Sequence record: PZ445488.1
Source of the DNA: a phage
Length of the DNA: 64,000 bases
Reading direction: 5' to 3' (one strand)
Below are positions 1 through 47,410 of this stretch, piece by piece. The notes under the pieces are model-generated. The model did no database searches. It was not told where the DNA came from and saw nothing but the letters and a program-made list of their open reading frames with translations. The translations under genes and the position numbers were made by a program. Positions within the stretch are counted from its first letter, which is position 1, and the number at the start of each line of letters is the position of its first letter.

Positions 1-1840
<1,840 letters not shown>

Positions 1841-1866
1841 AATAAAGCAAATTAAGAGGAATTAAA

Positions 1867-3849
1867 ATGTCACTTCTCTCTCCGGGCGTTGAGCTCAAAG
1901 AAACTACCGTACAGAGTACTGTAGTTAATAACTCCACTGGTACTGCTGCCCTGGCTGGAAAATTCCAATGGGGACCTGCATTCCAGATTAAACAAATCAC
2001 TGATGAAGTTGCATTGGTTGATATGTTTGGTACTCCTAATACGGATACAGCAGATTATTTCATGTCTGCTATGAACTTCCTTCAATATGGTAATGACCTT
2101 CGTGTTGTACGCGCAGTTGATCGTGATACTGCTAAGAACTCATCTCCTGTAGCAGGCAATATTGAATTCACAATCTCTGCTGCTGGTAGTAACTATGCAG
2201 TTGGTGATAAAATTATCGTTAAGTATTTGACCGAAACTGTTGAAGCAGATGGTTATGTCACTTCAGTTGATGTCGATGGTAAAATTCTTAACATTTATAT
2301 CCCAACCGGTAAAATTATTGCTCGTGCAAAAGAAATTAATGAATATCCTGCATTGGGTTCTAACTGGACCGCCGAAGTTGCCAGTTCTTCTTCTGGACTT
2401 TCTGGCGTTATTACAATTGGTTCTATCGTAACCGATTCAGGTATTCTGTTAACTGAAGTTGAAACTTCTGAAGAAGCTATTACTTCTCTAACTTTCCAAG
2501 AATCTATTAAAAAATATGGTGTCCCAGGCGTAGTTGCTCTTTATCCTGGTGAACTTGGCGACCAGCTCGAAATTGAAATCGTATCTAAAGCAGACTATGA
2601 CAAAGGTGCTTCAGCTCAGTTAAAAATTTATCCTGATGGTGGTACTCGTGCATCTACTGCTAAAGCAATCTTTGGATATGGCCCACAAACTGATGACCAA
2701 TATGCAATTATCGTTCGTCGTAACGATGCTGTAGTCCAGAGCGTAGTTCTTTCTACTAAACGCGGTGAACGCGATATTTATGGTAGTAATATCTTTATTG
2801 ATGATTTCTTTGCTAAAGGCGCAAGCAATTATATTTTCGCTACGGCACAAGGTTGGCCAAAAGGTTTCTCTGGCGTAATCAAACTGGGTGGTGGCTTATC
2901 ATCTAATGAAACGGTTGACGCCGGTGATTTAATGGAAGCTTGGGATTTGTTTGCTGACCGCGAATCTGTTAATGCGCAGTTGTTTATTGCCGGTTCTTGT
3001 GCAGGTGAATCTTTAGAAGTTGCTTCTACAGTTCAGAAACATGTTGTAGCAATTGGTGATTCTCGTCAAGATTGCTTGGTTCTTTGCTCACCGCCACGTT
3101 CAACTATAGTCGGTATTCCTGTTAATCGTGCAGTTGATAATCTGGTCGATTGGCGTACTGCATCAGGAACTTACACTGATAATAACTTTAATGTAAGTTC
3201 TACTTATGCTGCTATTGATGGTAACTATAAATATCAATATGACAAATATAATGACGTGAATCGTTGGGTTCCGTTAGCTGCTGATATTGCAGGTCTTTGT
3301 GCTCGCACAGACAATATTTCTCAGCCTTGGATGTCTCCGGCCGGTTATAACCGTGGACAAATTCTTAACGTTATTAAGCTTGCAATTGAAACTCGTCAAC
3401 CACAACGTGATCGTTTGTATCAGGAAGCTATTAACCCTGTTACTGGTACCGGCGGTGATGGATATGTTCTGTATGGTGATAAAACTGCCACTTCCGTTCC
3501 TTCACCATTTGACCGTATTAACGTTCGTCGTTTGTTCAATATGGTTAAAACGAACATTGGTTCAGCATCTAAATATCGCCTGTTTGAATTGAACAACGCA
3601 TTTACCCGTTCTTCTTTCCGTACAGAGACTTCTCAATATCTACAGGGTATTAAAGCTCTCGGTGGTGTATATAACTTTAAAGTTGTTTGTGATACTACCA
3701 ATAACACCCCAGCAGTTATCGACCGTAATGAATTTGTAGCTACTTTCTACTTACAACCTGCCCGCTCGATAAATTATATTACGTTGAACTTTGTAGCAAC
3801 AGCAACTGGTGCCGATTTCGACGAACTGATTGGTGCTGTAGGTGGTTAA
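1867..3849 (+). CDS. 18: tail sheath protein (gp18)
   Basis: 660-aa ORF; N-terminus MSLLSPGVELKETTVQST and length match T4 gp18 (659 aa) as recalled. Confidence 0.95.
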   Translation: MSLLSPGVELKETTVQSTVVNNSTGTAALAGKFQWGPAFQIKQITDEVALVDMFGTPNTDTADYFMSAMNFLQYGNDLRVVRAVDRDTAKNSSPVAGNIEFTISAAGSNYAVGDKIIVKYLTETVEADGYVTSVDVDGKILNIYIPTGKIIARAKEINEYPALGSNWTAEVASSSSGLSGVITIGSIVTDSGILLTEVETSEEAITSLTFQESIKKYGVPGVVALYPGELGDQLEIEIVSKADYDKGASAQLKIYPDGGTRASTAKAIFGYGPQTDDQYAIIVRRNDAVVQSVVLSTKRGERDIYGSNIFIDDFFAKGASNYIFATAQGWPKGFSGVIKLGGGLSSNETVDAGDLMEAWDLFADRESVNAQLFIAGSCAGESLEVASTVQKHVVAIGDSRQDCLVLCSPPRSTIVGIPVNRAVDNLVDWRTASGTYTDNNFNVSSTYAAIDGNYKYQYDKYNDVNRWVPLAADIAGLCARTDNISQPWMSPAGYNRGQILNVIKLAIETRQPQRDRLYQEAINPVTGTGGDGYVLYGDKTATSVPSPFDRINVRRLFNMVKTNIGSASKYRLFELNNAFTRSSFRTETSQYLQGIKALGGVYNFKVVCDTTNNTPAVIDRNEFVATFYLQPARSINYITLNFVATATGADFDELIGAVGG

Positions 3850-40008: not shown

Positions 40009-41175
<1,167 letters not shown>

Positions 41176-41188
41176 TGTGGTATGTAAA

Positions 41189-41599
41189 CTACTTTTTCTT
41201 ATGTTGGATATTCCAAGGCGGGTTGAACTTTTTGATAAAAAGTGGTTCTTCAAGGTCCATTGTTGCGATGGTCATTGAACCAAGTTCGTTGGTGACTGAA
41301 AGGTCAAAACATTGGCGGGCCCAGAATTCAACCTTTTTGCCTTGCATTAAGGCATCCAAAATCATAAGTGATTTTCTTGAATCTGAAGTCTGGTCTTTTC
41401 GATTTATGGCTGTTCGATAATAGTTAATGCGTTTCTTTAAATTCTTGGTTTTACCAATATACACAAGTTCGTCATCTATAGCAATAGCGTATATGACATT
41501 TTTCTTATTAGGGGCATCAATGGTTTTAATTGTTGCATCTTCTAATAGCTCCAATTCTATATATTTAATAAAGGAATATTCGGCGGCAATATCTTTCAT
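41189..41599 (-). CDS. denA: endonuclease II (DenA)
   Basis: 136-aa ORF; matches T4 EndoII (136 aa) as recalled; GIY-YIG-like core VYIGKT...RINYYR. Confidence 0.9.
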   Translation of the reverse strand: MKDIAAEYSFIKYIELELLEDATIKTIDAPNKKNVIYAIAIDDELVYIGKTKNLKKRINYYRTAINRKDQTSDSRKSLMILDALMQGKKVEFWARQCFDLSVTNELGSMTIATMDLEEPLFIKKFNPPWNIQHKKK

Positions 41600-41625: not shown

Positions 41626-42128
41626 TTAGAAATATTTTTTGTATGAATTGATTACATTTTGGTCTACATCATTATCAATTTGTGCGACAAGATAAGAACT
41701 GATTTCAACTTCCTGAGGAGCTGCTTGAACTAAATCAGAGTTCAGATATTCACGAATCCAAGGATACGGATGCTTGGTCGGAGCATCAGTGATTGGGCAT
41801 GGCAAACCACACTGTTTCATACGAGACACGGTCAAGTAATCAACAAAAGCACACATACTCTGCGTATTGATACCTGGACATGTACCATCTTTAAAGAGGT
41901 GTGCAGCCCATTCCTTCTCTTGACTATTTACTTCCATAAAAATGTCAACTGCTTCTTGTTCACATTCTTTAGCAATTTGAACCCACTCATCACCGTCAGT
42001 ACCAGATTGAAGTTGACGGATAATGTACTGAGTACCCTTGAGATGGAGTTGTTCGTCACGAGCAATGAACTTCATAATCTTTGCATTGCCTTCCATGATT
42101 TCCATGTTCTTATGGAAGTTAAAGGTAC
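41626..42128 (-). CDS. nrdB: ribonucleotide reductase small subunit NrdB, exon 2 (C-terminal part)
   Basis: encodes ...CTFNFHKNMEIMEGNAKI... to the C-terminus (...QEVEISSYLVAQIDND...), continuing the exon 1 reading frame across a group I intron; 5' boundary inferred (intron ends in G before GTACC), +/-2 nt. Confidence 0.85.
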
Positions 42129-43219
42129 CGTTATGTTCGATTGAGCTCGCTAATTCTCAACCCGTTCTCTTATGAACTGCTACATATTACTATGCAGACC
42201 AGACTATATCACAATCCCAGAGGGATTCTCCCCATTTCGAGTCGCTTGACCCTACGTCCGAAGACTAGTCGTTGAACCTTGCTTTGCAATTGTCGCCGTG
42301 CCATCGTTTATATGTTGATGGTGATAAATCTTTCTTATCACAATATGGACAATTCAATTGAATTCTATTTGGATTTAATTTACATCTGTCATTATGTTTT
42401 AGATAAAATCCAGGACCTTTACCAATGTGACCGCAGAAATCACATGTGATTTCTTTTTGTGCAGGATGGGTCCCGTTCTTAACCATTTCTAATGTTTTTG
42501 CTGATGTTCTTTTCTTATGGCCTTCTGACAAGAAATGATGTGAACCGTCATTTACCCGTTTTGATTGAGTTTCTGACTGCATTTTACCACCGCAAAATAC
42601 ATGAGTACCTTCTTTTATAGCTGCAATATTGCGTTCTTTAACTTTTGCAATATGCTCAGCTTGTTGAAAATTATGTATACCTAATGCAACTCTATTTAAA
42701 TTAGATTTACGCTGTATTTCACCGTCTAAAAGATGAAATGTACCATTTTCTATCTTAGATTTAATAGAGGCAATATTTTTAGCTCGTACTTCAGGGATAT
42801 TAAAAATCTGGATTTCTCTAGATTTTGCGGCTTTAGAAGCTAATTCAGAAATTTCTTCAGGAGAATATTTCATTCTAAGCTTTATAGCATGACAAGCCTG
42901 GTAATCTTTTTGAGCTAAATGTATATCATAATGTTCCTGTATAGAAAGGCACATCAAATTATCTAAATCATTATTTTCACGGTTACCGTCTTTATGATGG
43001 ATTTCGTATGTTCTTCCATCAGAATCTTTAGGTATAGGTCCGTTAGCATCTATCCAAATTTTTCTATAGTTCAATTGTGCATCCTCTTAAAAGTATAATC
43101 ATATTTATATTATACTAATTAAAGGTGCAAGCAAAACCTTGGCTGCTAGTTTTCCTATAAAGGACTTTCCAGCAATTAAAGGAGTTTTCTATAAACGTTA
43201 CCGTTTAAAGGCGCATTTT
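42129..43219 (-). mobile_element. group I self-splicing intron in nrdB carrying an HNH homing endonuclease ORF
   Basis: about 1.09 kb interrupts the otherwise contiguous NrdB reading frame; exon 1 ends in U, intron ends in G; a possible short P1 pairs exon GCGU with intron GCGC; carries the 269-aa endonuclease ORF. Confidence 0.75.
42265..43074 (-). CDS. I-TevIII: intron-encoded HNH homing endonuclease (I-TevIII-like, full length)
   Basis: 269-aa ORF inside the nrdB intron; N-terminal HNH core (EIHHKDGNRENNDLDNLMCLSIQEH) and C-terminal Cys/His zinc-finger-like clusters (CDFCGH, CPYCDKK); same length as the RB3 endonuclease as I recall it, whereas the T4 copy is truncated. Confidence 0.85.
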   Translation of the reverse strand: MNYRKIWIDANGPIPKDSDGRTYEIHHKDGNRENNDLDNLMCLSIQEHYDIHLAQKDYQACHAIKLRMKYSPEEISELASKAAKSREIQIFNIPEVRAKNIASIKSKIENGTFHLLDGEIQRKSNLNRVALGIHNFQQAEHIAKVKERNIAAIKEGTHVFCGGKMQSETQSKRVNDGSHHFLSEGHKKRTSAKTLEMVKNGTHPAQKEITCDFCGHIGKGPGFYLKHNDRCKLNPNRIQLNCPYCDKKDLSPSTYKRWHGDNCKARFND

Positions 43220-43895
43220 ACGCAAAAGATACATAAAAACGAATAGCTTCTAAGGCATTAATAACGTGTAAACAGAGGTAAAGAGATTTCATTAAAGCAC
43301 GTTTAGCTTCGGCTTCTTGTTTAATAGCTCGGTTTAAACGAAAATCAGCATCAGGAGATTCTTTAGCTAGTTCTACAAATTCTTTAGCATTTTCCCATTC
43401 ACGGGTTTTAATCAGAACGTCATCATAATAACGTCCAATGGATTCAGCGCGTTTCATAATAGCTTCATCTAATACAATTTCATCAAATACCTTCGATGGA
43501 TCGGTATAAAGATTTCGCATAATATGAGTATACGAACGAGAGTGAATAGTTTCACTGAATGTCCATGTTGCGACCCATGTATCTAATGAAGGGTCAGAAA
43601 TAAGTGCCATAAGTACCGCAGATGGGGCCCTGCCTTGGATAGAATCTAATAATGATTGATACTTAAGATTGTTTGTAAAGATGTCCTGTTGGAACTGAGG
43701 AAGCTTATTGAACTGCGCGGAGTCCAACATCAAGTTTACCTCTTCTGGGCGCCAGAAAAACGACAATTGCTTTTCAATAAGTTCTTCGAAAACTTTATGA
43801 CGCTGAATATCATACCGTGCGAGGCCAAGACCAGAACCAAAGAACATCGGCTCATTCAAAACATCGACTTGTTGCGTGTTAAAAACTGTACTCAT
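43220..43895 (-). CDS. nrdB: ribonucleotide reductase small subunit NrdB, exon 1 (N-terminal part)
   Basis: N-terminal 225 aa of NrdB ending ...EAIRFYVSFA; the in-frame stop seen in the track lies inside the intron; 3' boundary inferred. Confidence 0.85.
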
Positions 43896-43950
43896 TATAT
43901 TTTCTCACTTAGTTATTAACTCATCCATGAGTAAATTATAATCAAAAGTC

Positions 43951-46206
43951 TTAAAGCTTACAAGCAGAACAATCTTCAGCTTTAGGTGTTTCTAATTCAT
44001 AGTCATCTGTACCTGACCCATCACGAGTGTTATGATAGTAGAGGTTTTTTCCGCCAAAGTACCAGAAGTAAAGCAGATCGTCAAGCATTACCGACATTGG
44101 CACTTTACCTTTCTCAAATACTGCAGGGTCATAGTAAGTATTAGCAGAAGCAGATTGGCACACCCATTTCAACATGATAGCAACTTGAGTCAAATAAGGT
44201 TTATTACCTTTCTTAGCAAGTTTCCACGCGTAGTCGTAAAGACTCATGTTATGTTCGATATTAGGAACAACCTGACGGAAGTTGCCTTCTTTAGATTCTT
44301 TAATACTTACAGGTCCACGAGGTGGTTCTATACCGTTTGTGCTATTTGAGACTTGACTGCTTGATTCACATGGCATGAGAGCACTAAGTGTACTGTTACG
44401 AATTCCGTGTTCTTTGAGTTCAGCTCGAAGTTCTTCCCAGTCACAGACGTAGTTCGGGGCTGCGATTTGGTCAATCTTTTTATTGTACCAGTCGATAGGT
44501 AATTCGCCTCTAGACCATTTAGTGTCTGAATAATACTCACAAGGTCCTTTTTCTTTGGCGAGTTTGATTGAAGCTTTGATAAGGCCATATTGCAATCTCT
44601 CGAACAATTCATGAGTCAAATCGTTAGCGTCTTCATATGAAGCAAAGTTAGAAGCTAACCATGCAGCATAGTTCGTCACACCGACACCGAGATTTCGACG
44701 CTTTTTAGCTTTTAAAGCTTCTGGAACTGGATAATCTTGATAGTCTAACAGGTTATCAAGTGCACGTACTTGTACTTCAGCAAGTTCATTAATTTTATCT
44801 TGGTCTTGCCAATCAAATTTATCTAATACAAAAGCAGATAACGTGCATAAACCAATTTCAGCATCAGGACCATTCACATCATTAGTTGGAATAGCGATTT
44901 CACAACATAAGTTACTCTGTCGAATTGGAGCTTTTTCACGAATAAATGGAGTGTAGTTGTTCGTGTTATCAACAAACTGTGGATAAATTCGAGCAGTACC
45001 AGAACGTTCAGTCATGAACAATTCAAAGAGTTCTAGTGCTTTGATTCTTTTCTTTCTGATTGTTGGGTCTTTTTCAGCTTTCTCATAAAGCTCACGGAAT
45101 TTATCTTGATCTTCAAAGAATGAGTAATATAGTTCGCCTGACATTTCGTGAGGGCTAAATAAAGTAATATAATCATTTTTACCAAGGCGTTCCATCATGA
45201 GGTCATTAATCTGAATTCCATAGTCCATATGTCGAATACGGTTTTCATCCACGCCTTTGTTATTTTTCAGAACTAATAGGTTCTCTACTTCTAAGTGCCA
45301 CATCGGATAATACGCTGTAGCAGCACCACCACGAATACCACCTTGAGAACAAGATTTTACTGCAGTTTGGAAATGTTTCCAGAATGGAATAACACCCGTA
45401 TGTCGAACTTCACCCATACCGATCTTAGAACCTTCTGCACGAAGCATACCAACGTTGATACCGATACCAGCTCGTTTAGAAATATATTCAATAATTGATG
45501 CTGAAGTTTTGTTAATAGATTTTAACGAATCACCGGCTTCAATAACTACACAACTAGAGAACTGGCGAGTTGGAGTACGAGCACCTGCCATAATTGGAGT
45601 AGGCAATGAAACTTGATGAGTAGAAACGGCATCATAAAACCGAATAATATGTTTCAAACGGTCATGAGTTTCGTCTTGATGTAAGGCCATGCCAATAGCC
45701 ATGATAGCAAACTGTGGAGTTTCATAAATCTTCCCAGTTGTTTTATCTTTAACTAGATATTTTTCTTTAAGCTGCATAGCACCAGCGTAAGTCAGATCAA
45801 AATCTCGCTCATGTTTAATCCGAGAATCAAGATAAATGATTTCTTCTGCAGAATATCTAGATAACAACTCAGGACCATATTTGCCTTCATTAACACAATA
45901 CGAGATATGGTCGATAAAAGCAGGAGGTTCAAACTGACCATACACGTCTTTACGAAGCGCAAACATTAATCCTTTAGCGGCAACATATTGATAATCAGGT
46001 TCTTCAACAGAAATCGAGTTAGCTGCAACTTTAATACAAATCTTCTGAATATCTTTGGTGCTCATCCCGTCAACAAGATGGGTCTTAATTTCTTCGTACA
46101 ATTCATATGGGTCGATTTGTGTTCCTTCACATTGCCAAGTTAAGACTTGAATAATTTTCTGTGCATCAAAATTTTGTGATACACCACTGCTCTTAGTTAC
46201 TTGCAT
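43951..46206 (-). CDS. nrdA: ribonucleotide reductase large subunit NrdA
   Basis: 751-aa ORF; class Ia RNR alpha with ATP-cone N-terminus and C-terminal CxxC tail; T4 NrdA size (754 aa). Confidence 0.95.
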   Translation of the reverse strand: MQVTKSSGVSQNFDAQKIIQVLTWQCEGTQIDPYELYEEIKTHLVDGMSTKDIQKICIKVAANSISVEEPDYQYVAAKGLMFALRKDVYGQFEPPAFIDHISYCVNEGKYGPELLSRYSAEEIIYLDSRIKHERDFDLTYAGAMQLKEKYLVKDKTTGKIYETPQFAIMAIGMALHQDETHDRLKHIIRFYDAVSTHQVSLPTPIMAGARTPTRQFSSCVVIEAGDSLKSINKTSASIIEYISKRAGIGINVGMLRAEGSKIGMGEVRHTGVIPFWKHFQTAVKSCSQGGIRGGAATAYYPMWHLEVENLLVLKNNKGVDENRIRHMDYGIQINDLMMERLGKNDYITLFSPHEMSGELYYSFFEDQDKFRELYEKAEKDPTIRKKRIKALELFELFMTERSGTARIYPQFVDNTNNYTPFIREKAPIRQSNLCCEIAIPTNDVNGPDAEIGLCTLSAFVLDKFDWQDQDKINELAEVQVRALDNLLDYQDYPVPEALKAKKRRNLGVGVTNYAAWLASNFASYEDANDLTHELFERLQYGLIKASIKLAKEKGPCEYYSDTKWSRGELPIDWYNKKIDQIAAPNYVCDWEELRAELKEHGIRNSTLSALMPCESSSQVSNSTNGIEPPRGPVSIKESKEGNFRQVVPNIEHNMSLYDYAWKLAKKGNKPYLTQVAIMLKWVCQSASANTYYDPAVFEKGKVPMSVMLDDLLYFWYFGGKNLYYHNTRDGSGTDDYELETPKAEDCSACKL

Positions 46207-46549: not shown

Positions 46550-47410
46550 TTATACCGCCATTTTAGCTTTGATAGTTGGATGAGATTCGTAATTTTTAAG
46601 AATGAAATCACTCGGATTCATATGCTCTGTTACCCAATGAAGCTGTAATGTCGTGCTCCAATCAGAGAATCCTTCAGGCCAATCAATTTTAAGTTCACAC
46701 AGTTCTTTAGGCTCACGACGAAGAACTTCTTTGCACTGCTCTACATGGTTGCTGTAGATATGCGTATTGCCGCCTGAGAATACTAAATCACCCGGGATAA
46801 GATTACACATCTTAGCCACAATATGCGTCAAGGCAGCGTACGAGGCAATGTTGAACGGCAGGCCCAAGAAAACATCTACACTGCGTTGATACCATTGTAA
46901 ATCAAGATGACCATTACGCACATTAAATTGATAGAACATATGACAAGGAGGAAGAGCCATTTGGTCAATTTCGGCAGGGTTCCAGGCAGAAACAATTTGA
47001 CGACGATCAGTTGGTAATTTTTTAATACGGTCGATTGTTTCAACTAATTGGTCCACACCACCGAAATCACGCCATTGTTTACCATATATAGGACCAAGTT
47101 CACCACTATGATAACCAAGGTCTTTTGCCTGATTTTCGTAATTATCGTCCCAAATAGTTTTACCTTCAATTAGACTACCATGAGTACGAAGACGTAATTC
47201 ATTAACATTAGTAGAACCGGACATGAACCACAGTAACTCGGCAATACAAGCTTTCCATGCTAATTTCTTAGTTGTTACTGCAGGGAATCCTTTAGTCAGG
47301 TCCCAACGTAATTTAGTTCCGAACAGGGCAATTGTTCCTGTGCCTGTACGGTCGTCTGTTTCGTAGCCATTTTCTAGGATATCATTAATCAGGTATTGGT
47401 ATTGTTTCAT
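46550..47410 (-). CDS. td: thymidylate synthase (Td), uninterrupted
   Basis: 286-aa contiguous ORF; matches T4 TS (286 aa) as recalled, including the active-site PPCH motif; no intron. Confidence 0.94.
   Translation of the reverse strand: MKQYQYLINDILENGYETDDRTGTGTIALFGTKLRWDLTKGFPAVTTKKLAWKACIAELLWFMSGSTNVNELRLRTHGSLIEGKTIWDDNYENQAKDLGYHSGELGPIYGKQWRDFGGVDQLVETIDRIKKLPTDRRQIVSAWNPAEIDQMALPPCHMFYQFNVRNGHLDLQWYQRSVDVFLGLPFNIASYAALTHIVAKMCNLIPGDLVFSGGNTHIYSNHVEQCKEVLRREPKELCELKIDWPEGFSDWSTTLQLHWVTEHMNPSDFILKNYESHPTIKAKMAV

Follow-up and report, generated by a model that had tools for sequence, protein, structure and literature searches.

In phage T4, nrdB is interrupted by a group I intron, the self-splicing of which is experimentally established. 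T4 carries group I introns with homing endonucleases as well in other nucleotide-metabolism genes, i.e., in td, where the endonuclease is I-TevI, and in nrdD, where it is I-TevII. These latter two are GIY-YIG enzymes, I-TevI being a monomer, whereas I-TevIII, the endonuclease of the nrdB intron, is an HNH dimer. The control of their expression nevertheless is the same, that is, a late promoter in combination with a hairpin that sequesters the ribosome-binding site has been described for I-TevI and for I-TevII as well as for I-TevIII (PMC2988022).

The nrdB intron exists in a full-length form, in phage RB3, and in a deleted form, in T4, a situation for which PMC2988022 cites Eddy and Gold (1991) and which is taken up also by Robbins et al. 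(2007, PMC1865063). Robbins et al. (2007, PMC1865063) have shown that RB3 I-TevIII is an active enzyme and that the RB3 intron is mobile, with homing per recipient of 4.3% where the T4 version reaches <0.1%. The T4 intron is not self-mobile but depends instead on MobE, supplied in trans (PMC2790892). With RB3 I-TevIII, alanine at H26, H27, N39, or H48 abolishes cleavage, and the binding of zinc and DNA requires C211, C214, C242, and C245 (PMC1865063).

The DNA considered here, ‘the window’, is a stretch of 64,000 nucleotides from a phage (sequence record PZ445488.1). The locus of interest is read from the minus strand and is flanked by nrdA (43951-46206) and denA (41189-41599) of what is a T4-like phage (Tequatrovirus), the surrounding 24-kb stretch showing about 96% identity with several genomes of Tequatrovirus. 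At roughly 95% probability, the element found at this locus is the group I intron of T-even nrdB, in the full-length form known from RB3 and complete with I-TevIII. Such an element is already known, i.e., as the characterised RB3-type intron of Eddy and Gold (1991) and of Robbins et al. (2007). An original prediction, made from the letters alone, had proposed an nrdB interrupted by a group I intron at 42129-43219, its sole omission being the strand, which is minus for all features. The gene and its insert are arranged as follows.

43220-43895, minus strand: nrdB exon 1, with its ATG at 43895-43893 and a match to positions 9-141 of the Pfam Ribonuc_red_sm profile.
42129-43219, minus strand: group I intron, 1091 nt, which begins AAAAUGCGCC... 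and ends ...AACAUAACG, the terminal G being 42129.
41626-42128, minus strand: nrdB exon 2, with its stop codon at 41626-41628 and a match to Ribonuc_red_sm profile positions 174-271.

As read from the sequence and from a list of its open reading frames, the NrdB frame runs from 43895 to 43221, ending ...RFYVSFA, and then encounters a TAA at 43220-43218. A second NrdB-like frame extends from 42128, where (U)GU-ACC... gives C-TFNFHKNMEIMEGNAK, to the stop at 41626. The predicted break after ...RFYVSFA, with resumption about 1.09 kb further on, can be read, that is, at exactly 43220 and 42128. Position U43220 is the last base of exon 1 and also the first base of a Cys codon that is split by the intron; splicing in silico, which joins it to G42128, yields UGU for that codon along with a 392-aa NrdB that is free of stops. 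Exons 1 and 2 are two halves of one protein, as their Ribonuc_red_sm matches take up first the earlier and then the later portion of that profile.

Many T4-like phages align a 300-nt query representing the spliced junction as a single piece, i.e., they possess intronless alleles. In the intronless phages a48 and HY01 this junction alignment is ungapped (86/90 and 82/88 identities, respectively), the NrdB of both is also 392 aa, and a shift of the boundary by one base, in either direction, fails to reproduce the intronless ...GCNTGTACC... sequence. Because these intronless alleles align without gaps and because one-base shifts fail, the intron is exactly 42129-43219, just as had been proposed. 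The expected ligated junction, at 43220/42128, reads ...UUUGCGU/GUACCUUU... Within the handful of alleles compared, the last Ala codon of exon 1 (43221-43223, minus strand) is GCG in the intron-bearing window, RB3, and T4 versus GCA in the intronless a48 and HY01. Within P1, the partner of the exon G at -2, which is part of that GCG codon, is C7 in the guide sequence.

The helices of the intron can be grouped into three stretches.

43211-43223, minus strand: P1, in which exon GCGU (43223-43220) pairs with guide GCGC (43214-43211) about a loop of AAAAU, with agreement by the Rfam 5'-half alignment.
43141-43207, minus strand: 5' core, consisting of P2 (GUAA loop), the P3 5' strand, P4, P5, and the P6 5' strand, all pairs standard.
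42140-42278, minus strand: 3' core, consisting of the P6 3' strand, P7, P7.1, P7.2, the P3 3' strand, P8, the P7 3' strand, P9, P9.1, and P9.2, all pairs standard.

An exon ending in U (43220), an intron ending in G (42129), and a GCGU/GCGC pairing as P1 had been pointed to as group I traits, and all three are present. P1 is 4 bp in length, with a U43220.G43214 wobble at the 5' splice site, and a 2-bp P10 also is drawable. P1, P2, P3, P4, P5, P6, P7, P7.1, P7.2, P8, P9, P9.1, and P9.2 were drawn by hand using standard pairs throughout, and most of these helices are recovered by local minimum-energy folds. P7.1 (GUC-UUCG-GAC) and P7.2 (GGGUC-AAGC-GACUC) are located between P7 and P3', and on the basis of this pair of helices the intron belongs to the phage-typical IA subgroup.

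Scanning the interval with group I covariance models had been put forward as a check on the intron, with a failure to find the core to be held against it. At curated gathering thresholds, which for RF00028 means 50 bits, Rfam yields no match of any family across the whole 64-kb window. When reported instead by E-value, RF00028 is the sole Rfam family found in the window, scoring at best 33.9 bits over this region (E 1.6e-6; E 6.5e-5 for the whole window), and this whole-window scan contains no second group I match. Taken alone, the 5' end (43124-43235) matches RF00028 model positions 1-115 at 19.4 bits (E 0.0027); for the 3' end (42115-42290), also taken alone, the match is to model positions 122-253, at 30.5 bits (E 1.9e-6). 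The nrdB intron of T4, used as a positive control, reaches 35.7 bits, which likewise is under the 50-bit cut-off. Since that control fails too, and since each half matches separately, the sub-threshold score is a matter of an ORF splitting the core rather than of a missing core. The proposed check therefore comes out negative at threshold but positive for both core halves taken alone, and failure by the covariance model is not a valid refutation here, given that an intron of proven splicing fails in the same way; the sub-threshold result accordingly was dropped as an argument against the intron. The full-length RF00028 alignment, in addition, puts its 5' half into I-TevIII coding sequence (42300-42420), which is wrong, the true 5' core being at 43141-43223. 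As the model is unable to bridge a 0.8-kb ORF, that alignment is right for its 3' half only.

Comparative support for the fold is seen upon alignment of the 3' core of the window intron with that of T4 and those of six introns from phages of Staphylococcus, Bacillus, and Klebsiella, i.e., eight sequences altogether. Pairing is found in 97.2% of the cells for P7, P7.1, P7.2, P8, and P9, and compensatory (both-side) changes are seen in 15 of the 27 pairs, versus 27-40% of cells paired and 1-3 pairs with compensatory changes in slid controls. P7.1 and P7.2 both covary across the phage introns. P7 is invariant in this alignment other than at its outer pair, and that outermost pair as drawn, C949-G1020, is unsupported, being unpaired in four of the eight sequences. 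The P9 pair A1029-U1034 changes to G-C between the T4 and window introns. For P3, P4, P5, and P6, support consists of pairing within the window sequence along with the Rfam alignment. Distant relatives of the 3' core are found in 738 phage records. What the Staphylococcus (Twort-like), Bacillus, and Klebsiella phage introns have in common with the window intron is this 3' core (P7, P7.1, P7.2, P8, P9), at 68-76% identity and with helices kept by compensatory changes, but they interrupt genes other than nrdB, e.g., those for recombinase, DNA polymerase, and lysin, and they vary in whether an ORF is present and in which ORF it is.

The ORF within the window intron, its parts, and the segment which T4 lacks are as follows.

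42265-43074, minus strand: I-TevIII ORF, 269 aa, TTG start, with CDS limits as in RB3 records KM606994 and X59078.
42931-43065, minus strand: catalytic HNH portion, matched over residues 4-48 by Pfam HNH_3 (48.6 bits, E 6e-13).
42286-42444, minus strand: pair of zinc fingers of the form CX2CX12-13HX3C (residues 211-231 and 242-263), the region of DNA binding and dimerisation.
42520-43010, minus strand: segment absent from the T4 intron (intron positions 210-700, 491 nt), as seen upon pairwise alignment with T4 (NC_000866).

The intact 269-aa ORF, with HNH core and zinc-finger-like Cys/His clusters, that the original prediction had described is present, and it is interrupted by neither frameshift nor stop. 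It is found in the P6-closed loop and ends with a UAG inside of the P7 5' strand, for an overlap with the core of about 25 nt. All eight of the residues that have been defined by mutagenesis (H26, H27, N39, H48, C211, C214, C242, and C245) are present. A Pfam match to FlgM (anti-sigma-28) over residues 74-114 (42733-42855, minus strand), at 26.2 bits versus a cut-off of 25, was treated as spurious, this portion being a Lys/Glu-rich linker of the nuclease; it probably is a compositional artefact of that charged linker.

The closest described relative is the RB3 nrdB intron. It occupies the same insertion site in the same gene, is the same 1091 nt in length, and is identical at 1088 of those positions (99.7%). 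Its I-TevIII, too, has 269 aa and begins at a TTG, with the same stop, the same HNH residues, and two zinc fingers, consistent with the suggestion that the full-length endonuclease is the one known from RB3, and the late promoter and the hairpin over the ribosome-binding site are as in the window. The two proteins are identical at 267 of 269 residues, differing by D23Y and D185G. Y23, which is three residues before catalytic H26, is found also in phage JK45. G185 was seen in none of the 129 matching phage records, among which the best protein match is 99.6%; residue 185 falls in the stretch that separates the catalytic domain from the zinc fingers, and the T4 residue there is E.

Those 129 phage records were found by megablast of the 1091-nt intron; 80% or more of its length is covered in 85 of them, and in 51 the identity is 99% or higher. 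Included are RB3, RB5-RB10, and X59078, which is the original entry for RB3. RB3 entries annotate both a joined nrdB CDS and I-TevIII, and several of the matching records carry I-TevIII or an nrdB join. In terms of protein, 88 of the 129 cover at least 80% of I-TevIII. The intact, RB3-type intron thus would appear to be the common form among sequenced T4-like phages, with the deleted T4 copy the exception.

The T4 intron, at this same insertion site, aligns end to end with that of the window with but a single gap, i.e., the 491 nt missing from T4. Outside of this deletion 11 positions differ, a comparison which takes in the whole of the ribozyme core as well as the zinc-finger region, and just two of these differences, one substitution and one 1-nt indel, are in the 5' part. 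What T4 retains is a 97-aa remnant with zinc fingers but without the HNH module, described in the T4 record as a defective endonuclease, in keeping with the truncated, inactive form that the original prediction had ascribed to that phage. Given this near-identity to the T4 intron outside of the deletion, guanosine-dependent self-splicing may be inferred for the window intron.

There are two ways in which this locus might differ from a spliced and mobile intron, both of which can be weighed against the above evidence. The insert might not be spliced, that is, nrdB could instead be a split gene or pseudogene into which a free-standing HNH cassette has been placed, with the product being either two NrdB polypeptides or no NrdB. 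The absence of an Rfam match at the gathering threshold is in line with this idea, as are the two separate nrdB CDSs, with no join, found in some public records, e.g., those of JK45 (locus 825-3094) and G8 (locus 675-2445). Such two-CDS annotations look like pipeline artefacts, however, with nrdB given as a join in the records of RB3 and T4, and a second NrdB fragment would have to start at an internal Met, there being no sign of an independent gene start. Beyond this, RF00028 detects both halves of the group I core, covariation backs the fold, the number of differences from a self-splicing intron (that of T4, outside of its deletion) is very small, and the junction restores a conserved Cys codon exactly. 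The split gene with free-standing endonuclease was rejected on these grounds and would seem to be highly improbable.

Alternatively, the intron could splice while its I-TevIII is inactive, i.e., as due to D23Y, D185G, or both, leaving an element which, as in T4, is immobile when on its own. Residue 23 is indeed close upstream of a catalytic histidine, G185 is, within the set of phage records searched, found in the window alone, and decay of homing endonucleases is common, with the T4 deletion an example. The ORF is nonetheless full length and unbroken, and all eight mutationally defined residues are intact. Y23 is seen in JK45 as well, and presumably also in the many records with 99.6% identity, as can be deduced from those identity figures, i.e., one residue differs and G185 is the private one. 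Residue 185, for its part, is found outside of both catalytic domain and zinc fingers and is not conserved in T4. An inactive enzyme is therefore unlikely, if less so than an unspliced insert. To return to the full-length RB3-type intron as the preferred reading, the window intron probably is still mobile, going by the conservation of every one of the mutationally defined residues, and the Y23/G185 variant of I-TevIII would be expected to retain cleavage activity.

Three elements near the start of the I-TevIII ORF bear on its expression.

43102-43109, minus strand: motif TATAAATA, of the T4 late-promoter type, 27 nt ahead of the I-TevIII start.
43079-43128, minus strand: RNA hairpin pairing the Shine-Dalgarno (-14.3 kcal/mol, z -4.4, 0/200 shuffles equally stable).
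43110-43134, minus strand: candidate I-TevIII operator (intron positions 86-110), homing-site-like, 19/25 identical to -6..+19 of the spliced junction.

The late-promoter motif is enriched in the window, with 20 occurrences versus 7.4 expected. The Shine-Dalgarno is AAGAGG, at 43084-43089 (AAGAGGA), and the TTG start is 8 nt past GAGG. Right after this Shine-Dalgarno there is also a mini-ORF of three codons, ATG CAC AAT TGA (43071-43082, minus strand), which overlaps the I-TevIII TTG in another frame. The intron stretch that resembles the homing site, TTGCTTGCACCTTTAATTAGTATAA as compared with TTGCGTGTACCTTTAACTTCCATAA, adjoins the late promoter. An operator by which I-TevIII would repress itself is a matter of proposal rather than demonstration (PMC2988022), and 43110-43134 may be that putative operator.

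The following sequence of events would then apply to the window phage. The nrdB pre-mRNA would fold into a group I ribozyme, with external guanosine attacking after U43220 as held in P1 by guide GCGC. The freed exon would attack in turn after the terminal G, 42129, and ligation of exons would restore both the UGU Cys codon and the 392-aa NrdB. From the gene in the P6 loop would come I-TevIII, made up of an N-terminal HNH nuclease and a C-terminal, two-zinc-finger domain for DNA binding and dimerisation. Following cleavage, repair off of an intron-bearing genome would copy the intron along with some flanking exon sequence, i.e., homing. Expression of the ORF probably is late only, from the intron-internal late promoter, with the hairpin masking the ribosome-binding site in longer transcripts. 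That is, transcripts from the late promoter would start without the 5' arm of the hairpin, while long precursors would bury the Shine-Dalgarno.

As to surroundings, the gap between nrdA and nrdB is 55 nt (43896-43950) and contains neither mobE nor another homing endonuclease gene. A homing endonuclease gene is present between nrdA and nrdB in RB3, where it is mobE, as well as in T4, a48, and G8, but is absent at this position from both the window and JK45. The td gene, which encodes thymidylate synthase, reads through as a single 286-aa ORF (46550-47410, minus strand), and because it is uninterrupted the window phage has no T4-style td intron, nor I-TevI. Downstream of nrdB, denA (endonuclease II) is a 136-aa ORF (41189-41599, minus strand) with a GIY-YIG domain (Pfam E 2.6e-6), and this is followed by rnlA, at 40009-41133, for a gene order that is as in RB3.

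The intron and the gene which it interrupts have not diverged together. The former shows just 2-3 differences from its RB3 and JK45 counterparts (99.7-99.8% identity), the JK45 comparison having been made on the nrdB span only, while the nrdB exons reach 15-30 differences per 100 nt. With RB3 alone the exons show 195 differences, up to 28 per 100 nt, and thus are far more diverged than the intron. A near-identical intron within diverged exons fits with spread by homing following divergence of the host gene. Exon divergence declines toward the insertion site, with low-divergence tracts of about 50-170 nt upstream and 17-40 nt downstream. The intronless a48 and HY01, though, also are little diverged over the last approximately 250 nt of exon 1, such that conservation and co-conversion are inseparable there, and the good conservation of intronless alleles near the site likewise prevents limits from being set to a co-converted tract. 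More specifically, this phage could have gained the intron by recent homing from an RB3-like donor, with the flanking low-divergence tracts perhaps a record of co-conversion and with I-TevIII, given no mobE, then the only drive element of the nrd region, a scenario to which even odds may be assigned. Were this correct, it still would add nothing beyond existing descriptions of T-even introns.

What is found here, then, is a further natural instance of a mobile intron of textbook status, which by itself makes no open question testable. Its main value instead is for annotation, as several genomes of the same phage group list at this locus either two ‘NrdB’ fragments or a ‘hypothetical protein’, the latter being the label given to I-TevIII in several other public phage records. 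That the exons have to be joined for nrdB to be annotated properly had been part of the original prediction, and the join does result in an uninterrupted NrdB. On the minus strand, nrdB is correctly annotated as join(43895..43220, 42128..41626), and I-TevIII as a gene nested within it.
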